From a bacterium (GTDB lineage Bacteria; JAHJDO01): a DNA stretch of 64,000 nucleotides. Numbering within the stretch: position 1 is the stretch's first letter; every line of letters starts with the position of its first letter. The notes under the pieces are model-generated. The model worked only from the letters and a program-made list of their open reading frames with translations. It ran no database searches and was not told the DNA's origin. Below are positions 38,172 through 51,191 of this stretch, piece by piece. The DNA lies in NCBI GenBank assembly GCA_043824255.1, contig JBDRTG010000043.1:47644-111643 (forward strand). Direction: 5' to 3'. Both the position numbers and the translations under genes were made by a program.

Positions 38172-39206
38172 TTAAGTTTCACTTGAAAATAGTTCTTTTT
38201 GAGGAGCTTCCTTATTTGGCATGACACCAAGATGTTTATATGCAAGTGTAGTTGCTTTTCTACCACTTGGTGTACGTTTGATAAATCCCTGCTGTATGAG
38301 ATATGGTTCATAAATCTCTTCTATTGTGTCCTGCTCTTCACCTATAGCAACAGCAATTGTTCCTATTCCTACAGGACCGCCATTAAATTTATGGATGATT
38401 GTTTCTAGAATTTTTTTATCCATATCATCAAGTCCATATTTATCTACCTCCAGCATCATTAAAGCCTTATCAGCAACTTCATTAGTAATCTTCCCGTCTG
38501 CTTTTACTTCCGCATAATCCCTTACACGCCTGAGGAGTCTATTCCCTATTCTTGGTGTACCGCGTGACCTTTTTGCAATCTCCATAGCTCCTTCAGATGT
38601 TATCTCAACACGAAGAATCTTTGCAGAGCGAATGATAATATCATATAGATCATCCTGTCCGTAAAACTCTAATCTGGACACGATACCAAATCTCGACCTT
38701 AGAGGGGAAGTAAGAAGCCCGGCGCGCGTTGTTGCTCCAATAAGTGTAAAAGAGGGAAGATCGAGCTTTACTGACCTTGCACTTGGGCCTTTGTCAATCA
38801 TAATGTCTATCTTATAGTTCTCCATAGCTGGATATAAATATTCCTCTACAACGTGACTAAGGCGATGCACCTCGTCTATGAATATAACATCTCCATCGTC
38901 CAGATTTGTGAGAACGCCAGCTAAATCACCAGCTCTCTCAATAACAGGCCCTGAACTGGTTCTAATATTTACATCCATAGTTCTGGCAATTATATTTGCA
39001 AGTGTTGTTTTTCCAAGTCCGGGCGGCCCATACAAAAGGACATGGTCAAGTGATTCGTTTCTCTTTTTTGCAGCTTGAATGCAAATCTGAAGATGTTCCT
39101 TGATTTTATTTTGACCAACAAATTCCTCAAACCTTCCAGGTCGCAGAGTAACGTCAAACTCCTTATCTTCGTCCCGCAGATTTGGGGTTGTTATTTTGTT
39201 TTCCAT
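38172..39206 (-). CDS. ruvB: Holliday junction branch migration helicase RuvB
   Basis: 'LRP..F.EFVGQ', '[14 protein letters not shown]', 'FIDEVHRL', 'GATTRAG', 'SRGTPRI'. Confidence 0.98.
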
Positions 39207-39373
39207 ATAATATAACTATAATCAATTTATCAGAAAAATACAACGGGATTGTAAATGAGAAAGTAGTTGATTCGTCTGGCAAAATATCCTACATTAAACT
39301 CTACCAACATGTATGATATTATATCGGCAATATTTAGTATTATAGCTTAAATGATAACAAAAGGAGTGAAGAA

Positions 39374-40624
39374 ATGATCGAAACAAATCTGTTTAAAATT
39401 ACACAGAACCAATTAGATGAAGCTGTTGAGAAGTTGGGTCTCAATAAGGCTGCTCACGAGCTTCTTCGGTGGCCTCAACGGGAATTCACGTTCACTCTTC
39501 CAGTAAAGATGGATGATGGAACTACCAAGATCTTTCATGGATTCAGAATTCAATATAATTCAGCTCTTGGTCCCACAAAGGGAGGAGTGCGCTGGCATCC
39601 TGAAGAAACTATAGATACTGTGCGCGCTCTAGCTGCGTGGATGACATGGAAGTGTGCTCTTGTAAACATCCCTCTTGGAGGGGGTAAAGGCGGTATAATT
39701 TGCAATCCTAAGATAATGTCCGAAAGGGAAAAAGAATATCTTGCAAGGGCTTATATCAGAGCTATTGCTTCTCACATTGGCGTCCACAAAGATGTACCTG
39801 CTCCTGATGTTTACACAACACCGCAGATTATGGCTTGGATGATGGATGAGTACGAGGCTATAGTGGGGGAATCTCATCCAGGGATGATCACAGGCAAACC
39901 GCTGTCATTGGGAGGCAGTGAAGGACGTGGAGATGCAACAGCTCGTGGAGGAGTCTTTACTGTAAGAGAGGCATGCAAAGCTTGTGGTATTAGCTCCAAA
40001 GGCACCTTTGCAGTTCAGGGCTTTGGAAACGCAGGACAATTCGCAGCACTGCTTCATCCGGAAATACTAGAAGAAGGAAAACTTATTGCAGTATCTGACT
40101 CAAAGGGAGGAATATATAAGGAATCCGGAATTAATCCTAGAGATATAGTAGACCATAAATTAAAAACAGGAAGTGTAGCCGATTTCCCCGGAACAAGTTC
40201 TATCAGCAATAAAGAGATTATTGAGCTTGATGTTGATGTTTTCTATCCAGCAGCTATGGAGAACGTTATTACTGAGAAAAACGCGCAAAATATCAAAGCC
40301 AGAATAATCTGTGAGCTTGCAAACGGACCTACAACTCCTGAAGCAGACGCAATACTTTATGCAAAAGGCGTTCACATTATACCGGATTTTCTTGCCAATG
40401 CCGGAGGAGTAACTGTCAGCTATTTTGAACAGGTTCAAAATACATATAACTATTACTGGACATTGGATGATGTGCATAAACAGCTGGATGCCAAAATGAC
40501 CACTGCTTACCACTCAGTATATAAAATGCATAAGGAAAAGAATGTTCATATGCGTTTAGCTGCATATATGATTGCCGTTTCCCGCGTTGCCGAGGCTGTA
40601 AAACTTAGAGGCTGGATATCGTAA
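39374..40624 (+). CDS. gdhA: Glu/Leu/Phe/Val dehydrogenase (glutamate dehydrogenase)
   Basis: '[11 protein letters not shown]', 'MTWKCA...PLGGGKGG', 'DVPAPDV', 'GRGDATARG', 'QGFGNAG', 'ELANGP', '[16 protein letters not shown]'. Confidence 0.93.
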
Positions 40625-40649
40625 AAGACAAGTTGGTGTTTTTTAGCTA

Positions 40650-40679
40650 TTGTCAACTATATTTGTACTATGATATAAT
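40650..40679 (+). promoter_or_regulatory. Sigma70 promoter of the carB-purF-DUF1846-purL-hisF operon
   Basis: TTGTCA-18 nt-TATAAT with extended TG (TGATATAAT). Confidence 0.7.
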
Positions 40680-40807
40680 TCCGTCCCATGAGATTCTCAA
40701 TGGGATTTTCGATCGCCTTTTCAGTATGGTCTGTTCAGCGATGTCTGTTCTCTAGTAATATCATGTTTATAATGCCTAACATATCAAAGCGCTAAGGAGA
40801 TTATTTT

Positions 40808-43800
40808 ATGCCAAAAAGGACTGATATCCATAAGATTTTAATTATAGGTTCCGGCCCCATAATTATAGGTCAGGCATGTGAGTTTGACTATTCAGGCACT
40901 CAAGCATGTAAAGCACTTAAGGAAGAAGGGTATGAAGTGGTACTTGTAAACTCTAATCCTGCTACTATTATGACAGACCCTGACACAGCTGATAAAACAT
41001 ACATAGAACCGCTTACTGTGGAAAGTCTTGAAGAAATTATCAAGAAGGAAAAGCCTGATGCGCTTCTTCCCAACCTAGGAGGGCAGACAGGACTTAATCT
41101 TGCATCCAGTCTTTACAGCTCAGGAGTATTGAAAAGATATGGAGTTGAACTCATTGGCGTTAAAGCAGACGCTATTGAGCGAGGAGAAGACAGGATTGCA
41201 TTCAAGAAGACAATGAATAAATTGGGCATATCTCTTCCTAGATCTGAGCCATGTTATTCTGTTGAGGAAGCTGAAAATATAGCAGAGAAACTTGGATATC
41301 CTGTCGTATTGCGGCCTGCTTATACATTAGGCGGAACAGGAGGAGGAATTGCATACAATGTAGAAGAGCTGAAAACTATTGTCAGCAGAGGTCTTGCAGT
41401 AAGTCTCGTACATCAGGTTCTGGTTGAAGAATCTGTTTTGGGATGGGAGGAATTAGAGCTTGAGGTTGTAAGGGACCAGAAAAATCAGAAGATTACAGTC
41501 TGTTTTATTGAAAATATTGATGCTATGGGCATACACACAGGAGATAGCTTCTGCTCCGCACCTATGCTCACGGTCCCACAAGCTTTGCAAAAGCGTATGC
41601 AGGAGATTTCTTATAAGATTGTTGATGCTATTGGCGTTATAGGCGGTACAAATGTTCAGCTTGCGCATAATCCTAAGGATGACAGGCTGGTGGTAATAGA
41701 GATCAATCCACGAACGTCGCGCTCATCTGCTCTTGCCTCTAAAGCAACTGGATTTCCAATAGCCCGTATCTCTACAAAGCTTGCTGTTGGTATTACAATG
41801 GACGAGATTCCATATTGGAAGAAAGGAACCCTTGAGAAATATGAACCCAGTGGAGAGTATGTAGTAATTAAATTTGCGCGCTGGGCTTTTGAAAAGTTTC
41901 CAGGAGCAAAGGATATACTTGGAACACAAATGAAGGCCGTAGGCGAAGTAATGAGCATAGGAAAGACATATAAAGAATCCTTTCAAAAAGCCATCCGCTC
42001 TCTTGAGATAAACAGATGTGGTCTTGGCGGAGCTAAGAACTTTAAAACACTTTCCCTTGAAAGATTGAAAGAGAAATTAGCAACCCCCTCCAGCGAACGT
42101 ATTTTTCTGATGTATGAGGCGCTGCGCAAGGGTATGAGTGTAGAAGAACTTTACCAGATGACCTATATTGGACGCTGGTTTATTAAAGAGATGAAGGAAC
42201 TTGTAGATTTTGAGGAAGAATTAATCAAAAACATATGGAAAAATCTTCCTGAGAGAAAATTGGCAAAAGCAAAAGAGTGGGGGTTTTCAGATAAATATCT
42301 GGCAGGCCTTTTTGAAGTAAAAGAAAAAGAGGTCAGACAAAAGAGAATCGCCATAGGCAAATGCGGCTGTTTTGAGGCTGTCCCCGTAAGCGGAGTAGAG
42401 AATGCTGCTTATTATTATTCCACTTACAACGGTAAAGATTCAGTTCCTGTATCATCAAAAAAGAAGATAATGATTTTAGGCGGCGGACCTAATAGAATTG
42501 GGCAGGGTATTGAATTTGATTATACGTGTGTACACGCAGCTTTTGCTTTGCGGGATGAAGGATATGAGTCAATTATGGTTAACTGCAATCCTGAAACCGT
42601 ATCTACTGATTATGACACTTCAAACAAGCTTTATTTTGAACCTTTAACAGTTGAAGATGTACTCACAATTTACGAAAAGGAGAAGCCGGAAGGTGTTATT
42701 GTTCAGTTTGGCGGACAGACTCCTCTGAATATTGCTCAGGAATTAAAGAATAACGGTGTGAAAATTCTTGGGACAACGCCTGAAAGCATACATCTTGCAG
42801 AGGATAGAGAGCGTTTTAGAGAAAAAATGATTGCTCTTAATATCCTACAGCCGGAGAGCGGCATAGCGCGTTCATTAGACGAAGCTCTTATAACCGCTAA
42901 TAAGATAGGATATCCTCTTATGGTACGCCCATCTTATGTGTTAGGAGGGCGTGGAATGCAAATTATTTATGATGAAGCTATGCTGCGGGATTATGCCATT
43001 GAAGCTATTCAGGTCAGTCCGGAACATCCAATGCTTATTGATAGATTTCTTGAGCAGGCTGTAGAGGCAGAAGTTGATGCTATTTCCGATGGAGAAAATA
43101 CATTTGTAGCAGCTGTTATGGAACATATAGAATTAGCAGGTGTTCATTCGGGAGATTCTGCATGCGCCATCCCATCAAGAACTATTAAAAAAGAGCACTT
43201 AAATACAATAGAGAAATATACATCAGCAATTGCAAAGGAATTAAATGTCGTAGGTTTAATGAATATTCAATATGCAATATGTGATAATAAGGTTTATATA
43301 CTGGAGGCTAATCCAAGAGCTTCGCGTACAGTTCCAGTAGTCTCTAAAGTAACAGGCATAGCAATAGCCCATATAGCAACTCAAATAATGCTGGGTAAGA
43401 AGATAAGAGATTTTCCTGAACTAAAACCTCGCAAGCTTCCTTATGTAGCCGTTAAAGAAGCTGTTTTCCCGTTTAATATGTTTCCGGAAGTAGATCCTTT
43501 ACTAGGTCCGGAGATGAGAGCTACAGGAGAGGTTATGGGAATTGGCGATACATTCGGACTTGCTTTTTATAAGGCATCAGAAGCAGCCGGTTCAAAGCTT
43601 CCGCTTAAAGGTAATATGCTTTTGACAATAGCTGATAAAGATAAACCTTTTTTGATTCCCATTGCTCAGCGGATTAAGAAACTTGGTTTTAATATTTATG
43701 CTACAAAAGGCACAGCTAAATTTTTAAAAGAGAATAGCATACAGAATACAGAAATAAAAAAATTACATGAAGGAAGGCCAAATATAACTGACGCAGTCAA

Positions 43801-44029
43801 AAACAAAGAGATCAATCTTATTATCAATACACCTGTTGGACGCAGCGGGAAGCATGATGACAGTTATATTCGCAGAACTGCAATACAGCACAGGATTCCC
43901 TATATTACTTCGATAACGGCTGCAGAAGCCAGTATTGAAGGGATTGAATCTGTGACTAAAACCAGAAGTTTACCAAGGTCACTTCAGGATTATCTCAAGA
44001 AACTTATTAAAGTTAGAGAACAAGAATAA
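40808..44029 (+). CDS. carB: Carbamoyl-phosphate synthase large subunit
   Basis: 'IIGSGPIIIGQACEFDYSG', two ATP-grasp domains ('GIHTGDS', 'GVHSGDS', 'EINPR', 'EANPRASRTVP'), C-terminal MGS-like domain. Confidence 0.98.
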   Translation: MPKRTDIHKILIIGSGPIIIGQACEFDYSGTQACKALKEEGYEVVLVNSNPATIMTDPDTADKTYIEPLTVESLEEIIKKEKPDALLPNLGGQTGLNLASSLYSSGVLKRYGVELIGVKADAIERGEDRIAFKKTMNKLGISLPRSEPCYSVEEAENIAEKLGYPVVLRPAYTLGGTGGGIAYNVEELKTIVSRGLAVSLVHQVLVEESVLGWEELELEVVRDQKNQKITVCFIENIDAMGIHTGDSFCSAPMLTVPQALQKRMQEISYKIVDAIGVIGGTNVQLAHNPKDDRLVVIEINPRTSRSSALASKATGFPIARISTKLAVGITMDEIPYWKKGTLEKYEPSGEYVVIKFARWAFEKFPGAKDILGTQMKAVGEVMSIGKTYKESFQKAIRSLEINRCGLGGAKNFKTLSLERLKEKLATPSSERIFLMYEALRKGMSVEELYQMTYIGRWFIKEMKELVDFEEELIKNIWKNLPERKLAKAKEWGFSDKYLAGLFEVKEKEVRQKRIAIGKCGCFEAVPVSGVENAAYYYSTYNGKDSVPVSSKKKIMILGGGPNRIGQGIEFDYTCVHAAFALRDEGYESIMVNCNPETVSTDYDTSNKLYFEPLTVEDVLTIYEKEKPEGVIVQFGGQTPLNIAQELKNNGVKILGTTPESIHLAEDRERFREKMIALNILQPESGIARSLDEALITANKIGYPLMVRPSYVLGGRGMQIIYDEAMLRDYAIEAIQVSPEHPMLIDRFLEQAVEAEVDAISDGENTFVAAVMEHIELAGVHSGDSACAIPSRTIKKEHLNTIEKYTSAIAKELNVVGLMNIQYAICDNKVYILEANPRASRTVPVVSKVTGIAIAHIATQIMLGKKIRDFPELKPRKLPYVAVKEAVFPFNMFPEVDPLLGPEMRATGEVMGIGDTFGLAFYKASEAAGSKLPLKGNMLLTIADKDKPFLIPIAQRIKKLGFNIYATKGTAKFLKENSIQNTEIKKLHEGRPNITDAVKNKEINLIINTPVGRSGKHDDSYIRRTAIQHRIPYITSITAAEASIEGIESVTKTRSLPRSLQDYLKKLIKVREQE

Positions 44030-44047
44030 ATAAAAGGAGCACATAAA

Positions 44048-45439
44048 ATGGATGGGATATTTGGAGTTGCCTTAAAAGAGGATTGTCAGGAGGTTTTATT
44101 TTACGGAACAGATTATCATTCTCATTTAGGAACAGAATATGGAGGGCTGGCAGTATTAGGAAAAAGATTGGTTAGAAAGATTCACGCAATTAGCGGAGGA
44201 CAGTTTAAAAGCAGATTTTATGAAGATTATAAGAAAATGAAAGGGAAATCCGGCATTGGGGTGATATCTACAAGAGAAGAACAGCCTATATATCTAAATT
44301 CAAAATTTGGCCACTTCTGTATTGTTAGTAATGGTTTAATCACTAATTCGGATGGTTTGACTAAGGATTTGCGCAGGCAGGGAATTTCATTTAGTGAAAC
44401 AGCTAAAAAAGGAGTAAACAGTACAGAACTAGTTGCAAAATTAGTAAACCAGGGCAGGAGTTTAGTGCATGGAATAGAAAATTACTTTAAAAGAATTAAG
44501 GGCTCCTGTTCTATCCTAATCTTACATAAGGACGGTATCTATATTGCAAGGGATAAACTAGGATATTCTCCTTTAATTATAGGTAAATCAAAGGAAGGCT
44601 GGGCAGTAACTACAGAAACTTCTGCTTTTTTTAACTTAGGGTTTAGTATAGAAAGATATGTTAAGCCGGGTGAAATACTGCTTTTAAAGCCCACTGGATT
44701 TAAGGTTCTCAAAGAAGAGGAGCCGCATCAAAAGACAGATACGTTTTTATGGATCTATACTGGTTTTCCTGCATCAAATTATGAGGGTATAAATACAGAA
44801 GAAGTAAGAGAGCGTTGCGGAAAATTTTTGGCAAAAAGGGACAACGTTGAAGCAGATTTGGTAGCAGGAGTTCCGGACTCAGGAACTACGCATGCTATTG
44901 GTTATTCCATTGAATCAAGAATACCTTTTAGGCGTCCTCTGGTTAAATATAATCCCGGCTATGGCAGAAGCTACATTCCGCCGTCTCAAAGCATAAGAGA
45001 CCATATTGCTAAAATGAAGCTGATTCCAATTAAAGAGATAATTAAAGGGAACAGGATCATTTTATGTGAAGATTCAATTGTAAGGGGTACTCAGCTTAAA
45101 AACTATACTATCCAGAAGTTGTGGGAAAGCGGGGCAAAGGAAATTCATGTCAGGGTTGCGTGCCCGCCTTTATTGTTTCCTTCTAAATTCGATTATTCTA
45201 CCAAGAAGAAAGAAGAACTGGTTGCCAGACGTACAATAAAAGCTTTAGAAGGCAAGGATATTAAAGATATGAGCGAATACATTGATTCCAATTCAAAAAA
45301 ACACAAAAAAATGGTAGATTGTATTGCAAAAGAATTGGACGTTACCAGCTTAAAATACCAAACCCTTGAAGACATGGTAAAAGCAATAGGATTGCCCGAA
45401 GAAAAACTTTGTCTTTATGTATGGACTGGGAAGGTTTAA
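44048..45439 (+). CDS. purF: Amidophosphoribosyltransferase-like protein lacking the N-terminal catalytic Cys
   Basis: Ntn fold starting 'MDGIFG' (not MCG); 'GVPDSG'; PRPP motif '[11 protein letters not shown]'; 'RVACPP'. Confidence 0.85.
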
Positions 45440-46956
45440 TGATTAAAAAAATAGGTTTTGATAATGAGAAGTATCTAAAGGAGCAGACTAAGGCTATTCT
45501 TGAGAGAGTTGAGAGGTCTGATAATAAATTGTATCTTGAGTTTGGCGGAAAGCTTGTCTTTGACTTTCATGCTTCAAGGGTTCTCCCAGGCTTTGACCCC
45601 AATGTGAAGATACGGCTCTTGCAGCAATTAAAGGATAAGGCAGATATATTGCTCTGTATTTATGCCGGTGATATTGAAAGAAAAAAAGTAAGAGCAGACT
45701 TCGGAATTACATACGATGCTGCGGTACTCAAATCAATTGATGATTTAAAGGATTGGGGTATTGATATACTGGCAGTTGTAATAACACGTTTTGAAGATCA
45801 GCCGGCAACTATAATATTTAAGAACAAATTAGAGCGCAGAAACATAAAGGTTTATACCCATACATTTACAAAGGGATATCCCACGGATGTAAATTTAATT
45901 GTAAGTGATAAAGGTTATGGGGCAAACGCGTATATTAAGACTAAAAAACCTCTTGTCATAGTTACCGGGCCAGGCCCCGGCAGTGGGAAATTAGCAACGT
46001 GTCTTTCTCAATTGTATCATGATTATAAGAGAGGGATGAAAAATGGATATGCAAAATTTGAAACATTTCCTATATGGAATCTACCGCTTAAACATCCGGT
46101 GAATGCGGCTTATGAAGCAGCAACAGCAGATTTAAGGGATTTTAATATGATAGATTCCTTTCATCTTGAAGCATACAACAAGGTAGCTGTGAACTATAAC
46201 AGGGATGTAGAGGTGTTTCCTGTGCTTAAGAGAATATTAGAGAAGATAACCGGATCTGAGTCAATATATAAGTCACCTACGGATATGGGTGTAAACAGAG
46301 CTGGTTTTGGAATTATAGATGACGAAATAGTAAAACACGCTGCAGAGCAGGAAGTAGTAAGAAGATATTTTAGATGTGCCTGCGAATATGTAATGGGTCT
46401 TGTGGATAAGGAAACTGTGCAAAGGGTGGAGCTCATTATGGAGGATCTTAATCTTAAGCCGGAGGATAGGCTGGTGGTTGTGCCAGCACGAAAGGCTATT
46501 GAAGATGCTCAACAAAGAGGAGAGGGTAATGAAGGAGTCTTTTGCGGTGCGGCAATAGAATTAAAAGACGGCTTAATCATTACAGGGAAAAACTCCTCTC
46601 TTATGCATGCAACATCAAGTCTTATTCTGAATGCTGTAAAAGAGCTGGCGGAAATTCCCGATAAGATACATCTTCTGTCTCCGAACATAATAGATTCCAT
46701 AGGTAATCTTAAAAAGAATATTTTAAATACGAAAGCAGTGAGCCTGAATCTGGAAGAAACCTTAATTGCCCTTTCTATAAGCGCAACTACGAACCCAACC
46801 TCTCAGCTGGCTATGGAGAAGCTAGGGGAACTTAAGGGCTGCGAAATACATATGACACATATTCCAACCCCTGGTGATGAAGCAGGGTTAAGAAAATTGG
46901 GGGTTAATACTACCAGCGACCCCGATTTTTCCACAAAGACGCTTTTTGTTGAATAA
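45439..46956 (+). CDS. DUF1846 (UPF0371) domain protein
   Basis: '[10 protein letters not shown]...I.ER', '[21 protein letters not shown]', P-loop '[19 protein letters not shown]', 'YAKFETFP', 'SPTDMGVN'. ATG overlaps the purF stop (TAATG). Confidence 0.92.
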
Positions 46957-47006
46957 AGTAATTTTTTTAGAATAGGAATAAAAATTTAAAAAAAGGAGGG
47001 CGCATA

Positions 47007-49247
47007 ATGGAGAGTGCAGTTAAAGTTGATGTGGAAGTAGCAAAGGATTTAGGGCTTACTGAGCAGGAGTTTGAACAGATCAAAAAACTTTTAGGCAGAG
47101 AGCCGAATTTTACAGAATTAGGGGTTTTTTCAGCTATGTGGAGCGAACATTGCAGTTACAAGAATTCACGCAAGTTGTTCAAACTTTTCCCAACTAAAGG
47201 TAAACAGGTGTTAATTGGTGCAGGTGAGGAAAATACCGGAATTGTTGATATAGGCGACGGATTGGGCGTTGCCTTCAAGATAGAATCGCATAACCATCCT
47301 TCGGCAGTGGAACCATTCGAGGCATCTGCTACAGGTATAGGCGGATGTTTGAGGGACATATTTACAGTAGGAGCAAGACCTGTTGCAGTGTTAGGTGCAT
47401 TGAGATTCGGAAGTTTGGATAATGAAAAAGTTAAATTCTTATTTAAAGAGGTAATCAGGGGACTGGCTCATTATGCTAATACTGCAGAGGTTAGTGCTGT
47501 TGGTGGTGACAGCTATTTTGACGAAAGTTATGAAGGTAATCCTTTGGTTAATGCTTTTGCTGTAGGTATTGTAAAACATAAAGATATTGCAAGAGGCGCT
47601 GCGTCTGGAATAGGGAATCTCATATATTACATAGGAGGAGACACAGGCAGAGACGGGGTAGGTGGAGCGAGTTTTGCATCCCAGGAAATTACTGAGGAAT
47701 CTGCCTCTGATACGAGCAGTGTTGCTATAGGTAACGCAGAGCTTGGGAAACGCTTGAGAGAGGTGTGTCTGGAACTAATAGAAAAAGGCCTCATTGTTGG
47801 AATGCAGGATATGGGAGCGGCAGGGCTTACCTGCTCATCCTGCGAAACAGCCTCAAGAAGCAGGACTGGTATTGAGATAGATGTTGCCTTAGTTCCTCAA
47901 AGAGAAAAAGGAATGACCCCTTATGAAATCCTTTTGTCTGAATCTCAGGAAAGAATGCTTGCTATATTAAAAGACGGAAAGGAAAAAGAGGCATTAGATA
48001 TATTGAAAAAATGGAACATCAACGCAGTAAAAATCGGGAAGGTTACAGATGATAGAATGATGAGGGTTAAAGAAAACGGAATAGTGGTTTGCGAAATTCC
48101 GCCACAGGCTCTTACAGAAAGAGCGCCTTTGTATGATAGAGATGCTAAAGAGCCTTCTTACTTAAAAGATGCTCAAAATCTGGATAGAAAATCCATAATC
48201 GAACCTGACGATTTTAATAAAGTGTTGTTGCAACTGCTTGATTCTCCGACTATTGCAAGCAAAGAATCAGCATATAAAAACTTTACTGCTATAGACAAGG
48301 ATGAAGTTATAGTAGGAGCAGGTTCAGATGCAGCTGTAGTTAAAATTAAGGGCACTAAAAAGGCTTTAGCAATAAGTGTGGATTGCAACGGGAGATATTG
48401 CTATCTAAATCCTTATAATGGTGCGATGATGGCTGTTGCAGAAGCAGCGAGAAATATAGTCTGTTCTGGTGGAAGACCTCTTGCTATCACCGACGGCTTG
48501 AATTTCGGTAGCCCGATGAAGCCTGAAAATTACTGGCAATTTAAAAAATGTATAGAAGGACTTTCCTCCGCGTGCAGAGCTTTAGACACACCTGTTGTAA
48601 GTGGTAATGTAAGTTTCTATAATGAGAATCCTAAAGGAGCGATAGATCCGACCCCCATGGTAGGTATGGTAGGATTGATAGACGATGCAAACAAGCATAT
48701 TACCCAGGAATTCAAGAATGAGGGCGATGTAATAGTTCTTTTAGGTGAAAACAAGGCCGACCTTTCGGGAAGTGAATATTTATATCTGATTCACAACCAG
48801 AAAAAAGGCAACCCTCAGATAGATATACAAATAGAGAAGTCCGTTCAGAAAGCATGCCTTGAGGCAATTGAAGCAGGTATTATTAATTCCGCTCATGATT
48901 GTTCGGAAGGTGGACTGGCTGTAACTTTGACTGAATCATGCATCTCAAATTTAAACAAAATGCTTGGTGCTGTAATAGAATTGGATGGCTTAAAAAACAA
49001 TGATATAAGAATGGATGAAATTTTATTTGGAGAAGCGCCTTCCAGAATAGTGGTTTCTCTAAATAAGGATAAAATGGAGCTTCTTGAAAAAATAGCTCAG
49101 AAACATTCTATTGCATACACTATTCTTGGAGAGGTCAGTGGAGAAAATCTGGCAATCAAAGACAATCAGGAAAACATAGTAGATATTTCTGTTAAAGTAT
49201 TAAGCAATACATGGAGGAACGCAATTCCTTCAAGATTAGAAAAATAA
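47007..49247 (+). CDS. purL: Phosphoribosylformylglycinamidine synthase subunit PurL (small type)
   Basis: 'MWSEHCSYK', 'FKIESHNHPS..EP', 'QDMGAAGL', 'LLSESQERM', 'GNVSFYNE', 'SAHDCSEGGL'. Confidence 0.96.
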   Translation: MESAVKVDVEVAKDLGLTEQEFEQIKKLLGREPNFTELGVFSAMWSEHCSYKNSRKLFKLFPTKGKQVLIGAGEENTGIVDIGDGLGVAFKIESHNHPSAVEPFEASATGIGGCLRDIFTVGARPVAVLGALRFGSLDNEKVKFLFKEVIRGLAHYANTAEVSAVGGDSYFDESYEGNPLVNAFAVGIVKHKDIARGAASGIGNLIYYIGGDTGRDGVGGASFASQEITEESASDTSSVAIGNAELGKRLREVCLELIEKGLIVGMQDMGAAGLTCSSCETASRSRTGIEIDVALVPQREKGMTPYEILLSESQERMLAILKDGKEKEALDILKKWNINAVKIGKVTDDRMMRVKENGIVVCEIPPQALTERAPLYDRDAKEPSYLKDAQNLDRKSIIEPDDFNKVLLQLLDSPTIASKESAYKNFTAIDKDEVIVGAGSDAAVVKIKGTKKALAISVDCNGRYCYLNPYNGAMMAVAEAARNIVCSGGRPLAITDGLNFGSPMKPENYWQFKKCIEGLSSACRALDTPVVSGNVSFYNENPKGAIDPTPMVGMVGLIDDANKHITQEFKNEGDVIVLLGENKADLSGSEYLYLIHNQKKGNPQIDIQIEKSVQKACLEAIEAGIINSAHDCSEGGLAVTLTESCISNLNKMLGAVIELDGLKNNDIRMDEILFGEAPSRIVVSLNKDKMELLEKIAQKHSIAYTILGEVSGENLAIKDNQENIVDISVKVLSNTWRNAIPSRLEK

Positions 49248-49267
49248 AAAGAAAGGGTGATATAACA

Positions 49268-50038
49268 ATGCAACAAGTAAAAGTAATCCCATGTCTGGAT
49301 ATAAAAGACGGACGAGTAGTTAAAGGCGTAAAGTTTGTTGAATTAAAAGATGCACGTGATCCTGTAGAAGCAGCAACTGCTTATTGTGACGCAGGTGCGG
49401 ATGAACTTGTTTTTTTAGATATAGCCGCTTCTGTTGAAACAAGAGCCACACGCATGGATTGGGTAAAGAAGGTAAAAGAGGTAACAACCGTGCCCTTTTG
49501 TGTTGGTGGGGGCATAAGGAATTTAGACGATATGCAAACTCTTTTTGATATAGGAGTAAACAAAGTCTCTATTAATACATCTGCTGTTAAAAATCCCTCT
49601 TTAATCAAAGATGCTGTTGAAAAATTTGGCAAAGAAAGAATTGTTGTTGCTATTGACGGGAAGAAAAATCCACCTGAGGGTAGCCGTCCGAGATTAGAGC
49701 TCCTGATTATGGGGGGAGTGGAGTCGACTGGTCTGGATGTGGTTGAATGGGCAAAAAAGGTGGAACAGTTAGGCGCAGGAGAAATTCTCCTGACCAGCAA
49801 GGATGTGGATGGTACAAAAGAAGGGTATGATATTGAGATGACCAAGGCAGTAGCAGAAGCCGTCTCAATTCCTGTTACCGCCTCAGGCGGGGCGGGGAAA
49901 TTAGAGGACCTTTATGAAGTCATAATCCAGGCTAAAGCAGCCAATGTCCTATGCGCTTCAGTATTTCATTTTGGAGAGCTCACAATCCAAGAAGTAAAAA
50001 AATATCTAAAGGGAAGAGGTATAGCGGTCAGGGCATAA
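49268..50038 (+). CDS. hisF: Imidazole glycerol phosphate synthase cyclase subunit HisF
   Basis: 'IPCLDIKDGRVVKG' (Asp11), 'DELVFLDI', 'VGGGIR', 'VAIDG' (Asp130), 'GEILLTS', 'ASGGAG'. Start moved to ATG 49268. Confidence 0.93.
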   Translation: MQQVKVIPCLDIKDGRVVKGVKFVELKDARDPVEAATAYCDAGADELVFLDIAASVETRATRMDWVKKVKEVTTVPFCVGGGIRNLDDMQTLFDIGVNKVSINTSAVKNPSLIKDAVEKFGKERIVVAIDGKKNPPEGSRPRLELLIMGGVESTGLDVVEWAKKVEQLGAGEILLTSKDVDGTKEGYDIEMTKAVAEAVSIPVTASGGAGKLEDLYEVIIQAKAANVLCASVFHFGELTIQEVKKYLKGRGIAVRA

Positions 50039-50066
50039 TAGCTACTATACTTGCAACTTTTTTACA

Positions 50067-51191
50067 CTAAAATATTTCATCTACGATTGTTTTTACATAT
50101 CTACCAATTGCAGGTGAAGATGTTAGCCCTGGAGACTCAATCCCGATAAGGTTAATAAGACCAGGTAATTTTCTCTCTTTCTCATGTACAATTACAAAGT
50201 CCTTTATTGGCTCTCCACGTTTTTGGATCTTGGGGTGGATACCCGCCATATCAGGAGATAGATCGCTTAGTTTAATAAAAGGCAAGAAAGTTTTCGTTGA
50301 TTCATAAAATAGTTGTTTGTTGGTTTCGTCTACATCGTAATCAATGGTGTCAATAAAGTAGTCATAGGGGCCTAATTTTACCATCCCTTGCAGGTCAGGA
50401 ACAGTATGGATCCCTACATAACCTGGCTTTGGAGGAGAAGGATAGATAAGCCTGTGAGCAAGTTTATCTTTAGATCCACTAACGCTGAAGTATTCTCCTT
50501 TGCAATAATTGATACGATAGTTTGCGCTATCAATATCAATACCAACAAGCGCGGCAATATTCCCTGATTCTAATCCTGCGCTATTAATGAGAATTCTCGT
50601 AAAGAGATTTAGCATTTCTCCATCTGTATCCTGAATGCCTACCTGATAGCCTCCAGATACTTTCTCTATCAACTTGACTTCACAACTGTAGGCAATTGTT
50701 GCATTATTATTATTAGCTGTAGTCTCAAAATATCTCATTAAGCTATGAGAGTCAATAATTCCTGAGGAAGGGCAAAGGATTGCCGCCTTGGCTCTAACAT
50801 TGGGCTCAAGGTCATGAACTTCCTTTGAAGATATTATTCTTAAGTCCCTTGCCCCATTTTCTCTTCCTTTTTCTAAAAGTTCTTCCAGATCTCTTATCTC
50901 CTTTTCATTTGTGGCAACAATTAACTTACCAATAGGATTATAGGGAATATTATTTTCTTTACAGATTTGATAGAGCAAAATGTTCCCTTCTACGCAGAGT
51001 TTGGCTTTAAGAGAACCCTTGGGATAGTAAATTCCGGCATGAATGACTTCGCTATTACGACTACTTGTCTCTTTCCCAAAACCAATATGTTTTTCTACAA
51101 TAAAAACATTTCTATCCTTCTTTGCCACTTGCGCCGCAATAGACAGACCAACAACGCCTGCTCCGATTATTATAATATCTGTTTCTTCCAT
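50067..51191 (-). CDS. FAD-dependent oxidoreductase (LhgO/L-2-hydroxyglutarate oxidase family)
   Basis: 'IIIGAGVVG', 'ETSSRNSEVIHAGIYY..GSLKA', 'GKLIVA', 'KGEYF', 'GIESPGLTSS'. Confidence 0.85.
   Translation of the reverse strand: MEETDIIIIGAGVVGLSIAAQVAKKDRNVFIVEKHIGFGKETSSRNSEVIHAGIYYPKGSLKAKLCVEGNILLYQICKENNIPYNPIGKLIVATNEKEIRDLEELLEKGRENGARDLRIISSKEVHDLEPNVRAKAAILCPSSGIIDSHSLMRYFETTANNNNATIAYSCEVKLIEKVSGGYQVGIQDTDGEMLNLFTRILINSAGLESGNIAALVGIDIDSANYRINYCKGEYFSVSGSKDKLAHRLIYPSPPKPGYVGIHTVPDLQGMVKLGPYDYFIDTIDYDVDETNKQLFYESTKTFLPFIKLSDLSPDMAGIHPKIQKRGEPIKDFVIVHEKERKLPGLINLIGIESPGLTSSPAIGRYVKTIVDEIF

Follow-up and report, generated by a model that had tools for sequence, protein, structure and literature searches.

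The window analysed here, a stretch of 64,000 nucleotides from an uncultured bacterial lineage whose phylum consists of a single genus, carries an open reading frame (ORF) of the DUF1846 family within an operon of nitrogen and nucleotide metabolism. The closest described relatives of its product are Spd_0310 of Streptococcus pneumoniae and DIP2346 of Corynebacterium diphtheriae, which provide the two solved structures of the family (PDB 7F00 and 3BH1, respectively). The DUF1846 gene of Clostridioides difficile is essential. In pneumococcus, spd_0310 is synthetically lethal with pyrG, and the combined defect is rescued by cytidine and by no other nucleoside (bioRxiv 10.1101/2024.09.24.614635). 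The purified protein converts uridine triphosphate (UTP) to cytidine triphosphate (CTP) with ammonia, not with glutamine, and was renamed PyrJ (bioRxiv 10.1101/2024.09.24.614635). The same preprint reports that about 31% of the genomes with pyrJ lack pyrG, describes the C-terminal domain as cytidine deaminase (CDA)-like and places the family mostly in Firmicutes and Actinobacteria.

The second point of comparison is PyrG, the glutamine-dependent CTP synthase. PyrJ is predicted to catalyse the same net reaction as PyrG does on ammonia (UTP + ATP + NH3 -> CTP + ADP + Pi). Unlike PyrG it has no glutaminase domain, and hence cannot use glutamine. The window protein also shows no similarity to PyrG in sequence or fold, and no PyrG is found among its Foldseek matches. 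A third precedent concerns a different enzyme and a different reaction. Bacteroides thetaiotaomicron requires CarB2, an orphan and ammonium-dependent carbamoyl-phosphate synthase, when ammonium is high and CarAB when it is low (PMC8121099). There, as proposed for the window genome, a glutaminase-free enzyme is paired with a glutamine-dependent counterpart, the choice being set by the ammonium supply, and a CarB2-type gene is an operon neighbour of pyrJ in the window. The genes of B. thetaiotaomicron are scattered, whereas six functions are gathered in one operon here. Apart from this case, we found nothing relevant in the literature on PurF that lacks Cys1 or depends on ammonia, or on multi-enzyme ammonia operons.

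A probable PyrJ orthologue in the position of pyrG

The protein encoded at 45439-46956 matches both Pfam profiles of the family over their full length (DUF1846 N, PF08903, residues 5-337, E 6e-170; DUF1846_C, PF20921, residues 342-503, E 7e-57). It scores 782.8 bits against the NCBIfam equivalog PRK13663 (cut-off 631, residues 3-503 covered), a model that is still named 'hypothetical protein', and it aligns end to end with Spd_0310 (E 2e-160; 254 of 500 aligned residues identical, 51%). The Pfam scan found no CTP_synth_N or GATase domain in it, which sets it apart from the PyrG type. The DUF1846 family is very large (3335 representative clusters at E <= 1e-3). We used an alignment of 23 full-length representatives, 36-65% identical to the window protein (alignment A2), to identify invariant positions. 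These are F7, Y32, E34, G37, D42, H44, A45, K57, K184, P211, N222, A224, A228, D239, R255, P280, T281, M283, N286, I292, E305 and R309 in the N-terminal domain, and only H471 and T492 in the C-terminal domain. The window protein keeps every one of them, including the P-loop lysine K184 and H471. Its gene has a dN/dS of 0.04-0.06 relative to the orthologues of the genus.

The window protein thus shares two-domain architecture, length, P-loop and invariant residues with Spd_0310 and DIP2346, and its gene coexists with pyrG in the genome, as in pneumococcus. There are also differences. The clade of the window protein has a short insertion of 10 residues and conserved C369, H390 and C468, all absent in Spd_0310, and the window gene lies in an operon of glutaminase-free synthases, a setting undescribed for those members that are characterised. 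We conclude, with a probability of about 0.85, that the ORF encodes a PyrJ orthologue, i.e. a CTP synthase that works without a glutaminase and aminates UTP with ATP and free ammonia. CTP synthase activity of the window protein itself is what we infer from this orthology. An earlier note on this DNA, made from the sequence alone, held that DUF1846 has no assigned function. This remains true of Pfam, NCBIfam, NCBI and JGI, where the label persists, but it has been outdated in the literature since the 2024 preprint. Reading DUF1846 as PyrJ is mostly tidying as far as the gene itself is concerned.

The gene order of the genome provides a separate line of evidence. The genome is a 2.02-Mb metagenome-assembled genome (MAG), 87% complete (G000), with seven class I glutaminase domains and one PyrG, the only match to PF06418, on contig C29. 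On this contig, a cluster of genes in one direction, with gaps mostly below 25 nucleotides (C29:21151-46154), includes glnA, nadE, four pieces of glutamate synthase (GOGAT), carA, murI and carB, and continues with purF (encoding the start MCGIFG), pyrG, guaA, purS, purQ, purL, hisH, hisF and glmS (loci L099, L100 and L103). A large set of the glutamine-using enzymes of the genome is gathered there. Once the glutaminase and accessory genes are set aside, the order on C29 is carB-purF-pyrG-purL-hisF, and that of the window is carB'-purF*-DUF1846-purL'-hisF'. The DUF1846 gene hence occupies the slot of pyrG. The paralogues of the two clusters are 55% (CarB), 33% (PurF), 50% (PurL) and 56% (HisF) identical. 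The earlier note had also spoken of four missing glutaminases. They are indeed absent from the window operon, but carA, purQ and purS, hisH and a purF with Cys1 are all present on C29, together with synthase paralogues of their own.

PyrJ and PyrG share a genomic position in other bacteria as well. We surveyed 80 loci from other genomes encoding PyrJ 67-94% identical to that of the window, with flanks of up to 10 kb. The gene pyrG directly adjoins pyrJ in five of them, all in other phyla (L029, L040, L044, L061, L086), against about 0.1 by chance. Together with the synteny of the pyrG slot, this adjacency is evidence for the PyrJ assignment that is independent of pneumococcus. One of these pairs (L029, JBHPEY010000010.1; PyrJ 75% identical to that of the window) comes from a record that bears the label of a Nanoarchaeota single-amplified genome (SAG); it may have been transferred horizontally, or the SAG may be mislabelled or contaminated. 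Close homologues of PyrJ are common far beyond Firmicutes and Actinobacteria, namely in MAGs that carry the labels Omnitrophota, Planctomycetota, Spirochaetota, Syntrophales, WOR-3 and Cloacimonadota, and pyrJ is present in all nine species of the phylum of the window genome.

Domains and proposed mechanism

The AlphaFold2 (AF2) model of the N-terminal domain has a predicted local distance difference test (pLDDT) score of 91.4, and Foldseek aligns it with 7F00 and 3BH1 at template modelling (TM) scores of 0.91-0.95. The earlier note had pointed to a P-loop in this domain. The glycine-rich loop GPGPGSGK is present, is of a type that may bind nucleoside triphosphates (NTP) and is flanked in the model by a strand and a helix; no P-loop family is matched above TM 0.25. 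As a Walker A motif it is deviant: Lys184 is followed by Leu (GPGPGSGK-L), not by the Ser/Thr of GxxxxGK[ST]. We considered a PyrG/dethiobiotin-synthetase-type, PP-loop or kinase fold for the domain, and Foldseek found no tie to any of them. Nearly all the invariant residues of the family lie in the N-terminal domain, which is therefore most likely the catalytic core.

The model of the C-terminal domain (pLDDT 87.6) matches 7F00 and 3BH1 with TM scores of 0.80-0.86. After these two, Foldseek retrieves almost exclusively guanine, cytidine, deoxycytidine monophosphate (dCMP) and tRNA deaminases, with weak scores (E 0.02-0.8) and a guanine deaminase at the top. A hidden Markov model (HMM) profile of the domain searched against PDB sequences recovered no deaminase and only chance matches to TFIIB. 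The domain may be a diverged CDA-like fold, the likeness being at the level of the modelled fold only. The echo of a cytidine deaminase in the C-terminal part, suggested by the earlier note, is real at that level and agrees with the preprint. The strand-turn-strand-helix (GAAIEL-DG-IITGKNS...H-A-x) and the overall fold recall the deaminase core, but the catalytic Glu is absent (HAT) and GCExH stands in place of PCxxC. In our by-eye alignment, the position of the deaminase H/C-A-E motif is occupied by H390-A-T in the window protein and by G-P-T in Spd_0310, and that of PCxxC by G-C468-E-I-H471 and G-S-E-A-H, respectively. The zinc and catalytic motifs of deaminases are thus conserved in neither protein.

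Among the 81 sequences of the window's PyrJ clade, C369 (46543-46545), H390 (46606-46608), C468 (46840-46842) and H471 are conserved. These four residues, which in the by-eye alignment fall where deaminases have their zinc motifs, could form a metal site specific to the clade. The earlier note had seen no evident zinc ligands, which is only partly right: the clade conserves the four residues, of which H471 alone is invariant across the family. Since Spd_0310 lacks the other three, a zinc-dependent 'reverse deaminase' is not a family-wide mechanism.

These observations allow a mechanism to be proposed. The N-terminal domain would use the GPGPGSGK loop (Lys184) to bind ATP and would activate the O4 of the uracil of UTP, and ammonia from solution would then displace the phosphate. 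The CDA-like C-terminal domain would supply pyrimidine binding and/or His471, as well as tetramer contacts.

Alternative functions and the nitrogen donor

The pyrG slot could also accommodate a related function, the ammonia-dependent amination of another nucleotide, e.g. of xanthosine monophosphate (XMP) to guanosine monophosphate (GMP), in replacement of GuaA or of both GuaA and PyrG. C29 has pyrG and guaA between purF and purQ, where the window has one gene, guaA lies beside or near pyrJ in three of the surveyed loci (L016, L018, L026), and the top match of the C-terminal domain outside the family is the guanine deaminase mentioned above. We nevertheless consider this replacement improbable. 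The protein has a full-length match of equivalog type in NCBIfam, is 51% identical to an enzyme that makes CTP from UTP and keeps all the invariants of the family. In addition, the rescue in pneumococcus is specific to cytidine, and pyrJ directly adjoins pyrG more often than guaA. GuaA-type enzymes can use NH3 themselves, which makes their replacement less needed.

The genomic associations of pyrJ also involve other enzymes of ammonia-dependent amidotransfer. Outside the genus, an orphan CarB2-type gene lies near pyrJ in 12 loci, and a gene for a PurF without Cys1 (position 1 being Ser, Gly or Ala) clusters with pyrJ in six loci. A paralogue of the PurF* type, usually unlinked, occurs in 36 of the 50 genomes with a close PyrJ and in one of 32 background genomes, a contrast that is indicative and not a corrected statistic, because the two sets of genomes differ in phylogeny and habitat. 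The phylogenetic profiling proposed in the earlier note, of DUF1846 against PurF without Cys1, is thus positive. In the background genomes, PurF* was found once, in a genome lacking pyrJ (G023), and pyrJ twice, with canonical PurF only (G017) and with no PurF match (G021). PyrJ and PurF* hence co-occur strongly, but not obligately. About 56 of the 80 loci have no match, within the fetched flanks, to the amidotransferase and gdh genes that we searched for.

PurF* itself belongs to a clade of PurF paralogues with Ser, Gly, Asp or Ala for Cys1 that is spread over many phyla (genomes G041-G090). All 19 sampled N-termini of its orthologues (L108-L126) start with MSG or MGG and share a motif of 13 residues. 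Where Ser is the first residue, it could in principle still be an N-terminal nucleophile (Ntn).

On the basis of this context, the earlier note had proposed that DUF1846 is an NTP-dependent protein that generates or delivers ammonia, or a regulator responding to nitrogen status, and that it replaces the glutaminases of CarB', PurF*, PurL' and HisF'. The co-occurrence with PurF lacking Cys1, the coupling of its translation to that of PurF* and the deaminase-like C-terminal domain all speak for such a partner. The TAATG junction was confirmed: the stop codon of purF* (TAA, 45437-45439) and the start codon of DUF1846 (ATG, 45439-45441) overlap by one nucleotide, with a Shine-Dalgarno-like run (GGGAAGG, 45428-45434) four nucleotides 5' of the ATG. 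The gene is also central in the operon, as noted earlier, with three co-oriented genes before it (gdh, carB', purF*) and two after it (purL', hisF'). However, overlaps between stop and start codons are generic in this genome (the gaps of the C29 cluster include -1, -4, -4 and -10 nucleotides), and elsewhere pyrJ overlaps or abuts genes for a PurF with Cys1 (L018, L030), HisF (L013) or PyrG (L044, L061, L086). We therefore rejected the reading that TAATG points to a complex between PurF* and PyrJ; the overlap reflects operon packing and no special partnership.

Other observations make a role in supplying ammonia very doubtful. The purified orthologue, on its own, consumes NH3 to make CTP. Most pyrJ genes stand apart from the searched amidotransferase and gdh genes, pyrJ occurs without PurF* and PurF* without pyrJ, the deaminase motifs are not conserved, and glutaminases exist elsewhere in the genome. 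The proposal explains only the co-occurrence with PurF*, and conflicts with the distribution of stand-alone pyrJ genes and with the published biochemistry. What stands of it is the tie, through genomic context, between DUF1846 and ammonia-dependent amidotransfer; a role as donor is unsupported, and the orthologue uses ammonia up. An NH3-dependent CTP synthase, on the other hand, explains the co-occurrence with PurF*, the adjacency to pyrG, the synteny of the pyrG slot, the stand-alone pyrJ genes and the published biochemistry. Least probable of all is a primary role in cytoplasmic hemin binding or iron homeostasis, as proposed for SPD_0310 in 2022 from surface plasmon resonance (SPR) and other binding assays and from iron-related phenotypes of the pneumococcal mutant (PMC9238395). 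The window operon has no haem or iron genes, and the neighbours of pyrJ annotated at the 80 loci (amidotransferase, gdh and murI genes) include none either. Consistent associations of pyrJ are those with pyrG and with ammonia-dependent enzymes of nucleotide synthesis, genetics and enzymology bear directly on CTP synthesis, and an invariant lysine in the P-loop points to an enzyme.

Several points weigh against the assignment of the window gene as an ammonia-dependent CTP synthase. The sole biochemistry comes from one preprint on a Firmicute orthologue that is 51% identical, and that same pneumococcal protein had earlier been assigned the hemin-binding role. Foldseek retrieved no structural neighbour of the N-terminal domain outside the family above TM 0.25, so that the chemistry is not fixed by the fold. 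The link between the C-terminal domain and deaminases is weak (TM 0.33-0.41) and has no match at the sequence level. The window has one gene where C29 has two (pyrG and guaA), a position compatible with a GuaA-like role. Finally, the ammonia-dependence of CarB', PurL' and HisF' is a prediction from missing or mutated glutaminase interfaces.

With PyrJ as an ammonia-dependent CTP synthase, the window gene is best read as belonging with GDH (glutamate dehydrogenase), CarB2, PurF*, PurL' and HisF', all of which would use free ammonia. In this reading it would contribute the CTP synthase to an 'ammonia-mode' operon (gdh, CarB2, PurF without Cys1, PyrJ, PurL', HisF') parallel to the 'glutamine-mode' cluster of C29, which would be under sigma54 control and has PyrG in the equivalent position. 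When ammonium is plentiful, nucleotides and the precursors of arginine and histidine would be made directly from NH3; when it is scarce, they would be made via glutamine. A gene encoding a GAF and sigma54-activator protein lies directly 5' of the C29 cluster, and a sigma54-type site (TGGCAT-N5-TTGCT), one of only ten strict matches in the genome, is found 43 nucleotides before the start of glnA. There are no strict matches of this type in the window. The two clusters would then be reciprocally regulated. We lean slightly towards a hard-wired nitrogen-donor switch, in which a glutamine-mode cluster with a sigma54/GAF activator runs parallel to an ammonia-mode operon with a sigma70-type promoter, PyrJ being one part of the latter.

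The core ammonia module formed by CarB2, PurF* and PyrJ is found again in many anaerobic phyla, whether its genes are linked or unlinked. This suggests a widespread and undescribed bypass of glutamine in nucleotide synthesis when ammonium is abundant. While the function of the family was already known, the association between PyrJ, PurF* and CarB2 appears to be new, as does, in the papers searched, the mirroring of a glutamine cluster by an ammonia operon. If the two clusters are used alternately, they would be a clean natural example of nitrogen-donor switching at the scale of whole pathways, and would extend the single-enzyme precedent of CarB2 in Bacteroides.

In one genome of the same genus (G006; L101 and L011), the genes of both clusters are found in a hybrid arrangement, purF-pyrG-gdh-carB'-purF*-pyrJ-purQ-purL-hisH-hisF. 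The block gdh-carB'-purF*-pyrJ takes the place that guaA-purS has in the window genome. The arrangement points to a recombination of the clusters in which the four genes would have moved together as a module.

Neighbouring genes and paralogues

The features of the window operon are listed in Table 1. The gene gdh heads the cluster and gives an ammonia-dependent route to glutamate. The candidate sigma70-like site between gdh and carB' would act as the promoter of the genes that follow it, judging from its match to the consensus. Directly after its predicted -10 box lies a small hairpin (UCCCAUGAGAUUCUCAAUGGGA) followed by UUUUCG (40683-40710), which may stabilise the 5' end or act as an attenuator. 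The leader of carB' (40680-40810) folds no better than shuffled sequences (z -0.41), and an Rfam scan of 38900-50400 (E <= 1) gave no match to a riboswitch or to a leader RNA.

Table 1. Features of the window operon and of the predicted PyrJ protein (positions in the window).
Feature	Position	Strand	Description and evidence
gdh	39374..40624	+	glutamate dehydrogenase, 416 amino acids (aa); Pfam ELFV_dehydrog_N E 3e-54, ELFV_dehydrog E 2e-74
sigma70-like promoter candidate	40650..40679	+	TTGTCA-18-TG-TATAAT, 5' of carB'; 11/12 consensus matches, best in region
carB'	40808..44029	+	CarB2-type carbamoyl-phosphate synthase large subunit, 1073 aa; NCBIfam PRK05294 1540 bits
purF*	44048..45439	+	PurF paralogue without the Cys1 nucleophile; TIGR01134 211 bits, under the cut-off of 350
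TAATG	45437..45441	+	purF* stop and pyrJ start, overlap of 1 nucleotide; direct sequence reading
pyrJ (DUF1846/UPF0371)	45439..46956	+	505 aa; predicted ammonia-dependent CTP synthase
N-terminal domain	45451..46449	+	residues 5-337; Pfam, invariants, AF2 model
P-loop	45967..45990	+	glycine-rich GPGPGSGK, residues 177-184, invariant Lys184; sequence and alignment
C-terminal domain	46462..46947	+	residues 342-503; Pfam, AF2 model, Foldseek
deaminase-like stretch	46546-46596	+	17 residues of the C-terminal domain, 370-386; sequence
His471 codon	46849..46851	+	one of two invariants of the C-terminal domain (alignment A2)
purL'	47007..49247	+	formylglycinamidine ribonucleotide (FGAM) synthase II, 746 aa; NCBIfam PRK01213 925 bits
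hisF'	49268..50038	+	cyclase subunit, 256 aa; TIGR00735 320 bits; start as called in relatives

In the window operon, carB' lacks an adjacent carA, purL' an adjacent purQ or purS, and hisF' an adjacent hisH. HisF' carries D98N (GVNKV), and PurF* starts with MDGIFG, with Asp in place of Cys1. The longest ORF for hisF' starts at 49211. CarB' is 63-81% identical to the CarB copies found near pyrJ in other phyla. The operon is intact in two genomes of the same genus, G004 (GCA_018812485.1) and G007. In two relatives of the genus, the gap between carB' and purF* is an unannotated stretch of 1.0-1.5 kb (L010 1954-3477; L098 3539-4581), against 18 nucleotides in the window.

Additional copies of some of these genes are found elsewhere in the genome. 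A third CarB is encoded on a 10.4-kb contig of slightly higher GC content (C51; 0.399); it, too, is CarB2-type and shares 71% identity with the copy of the window. It adjoins a purB-like gene, an integrase-like ORF and an ORF of 966 aa that looks transposase-like by eye (C51:7101-10289; C51:1827-5302), and may be a mobile copy or a contamination of the bin. A 10.7-kb contig has an extra guaA (71% identical) and an extra hisH (63% identical) side by side (C22:108-2727), and a second gdh, 47% identical, is found at C44:7864-9099. These extra guaA, hisH and gdh copies may be paralogues, or they may stem from contamination by a related organism.

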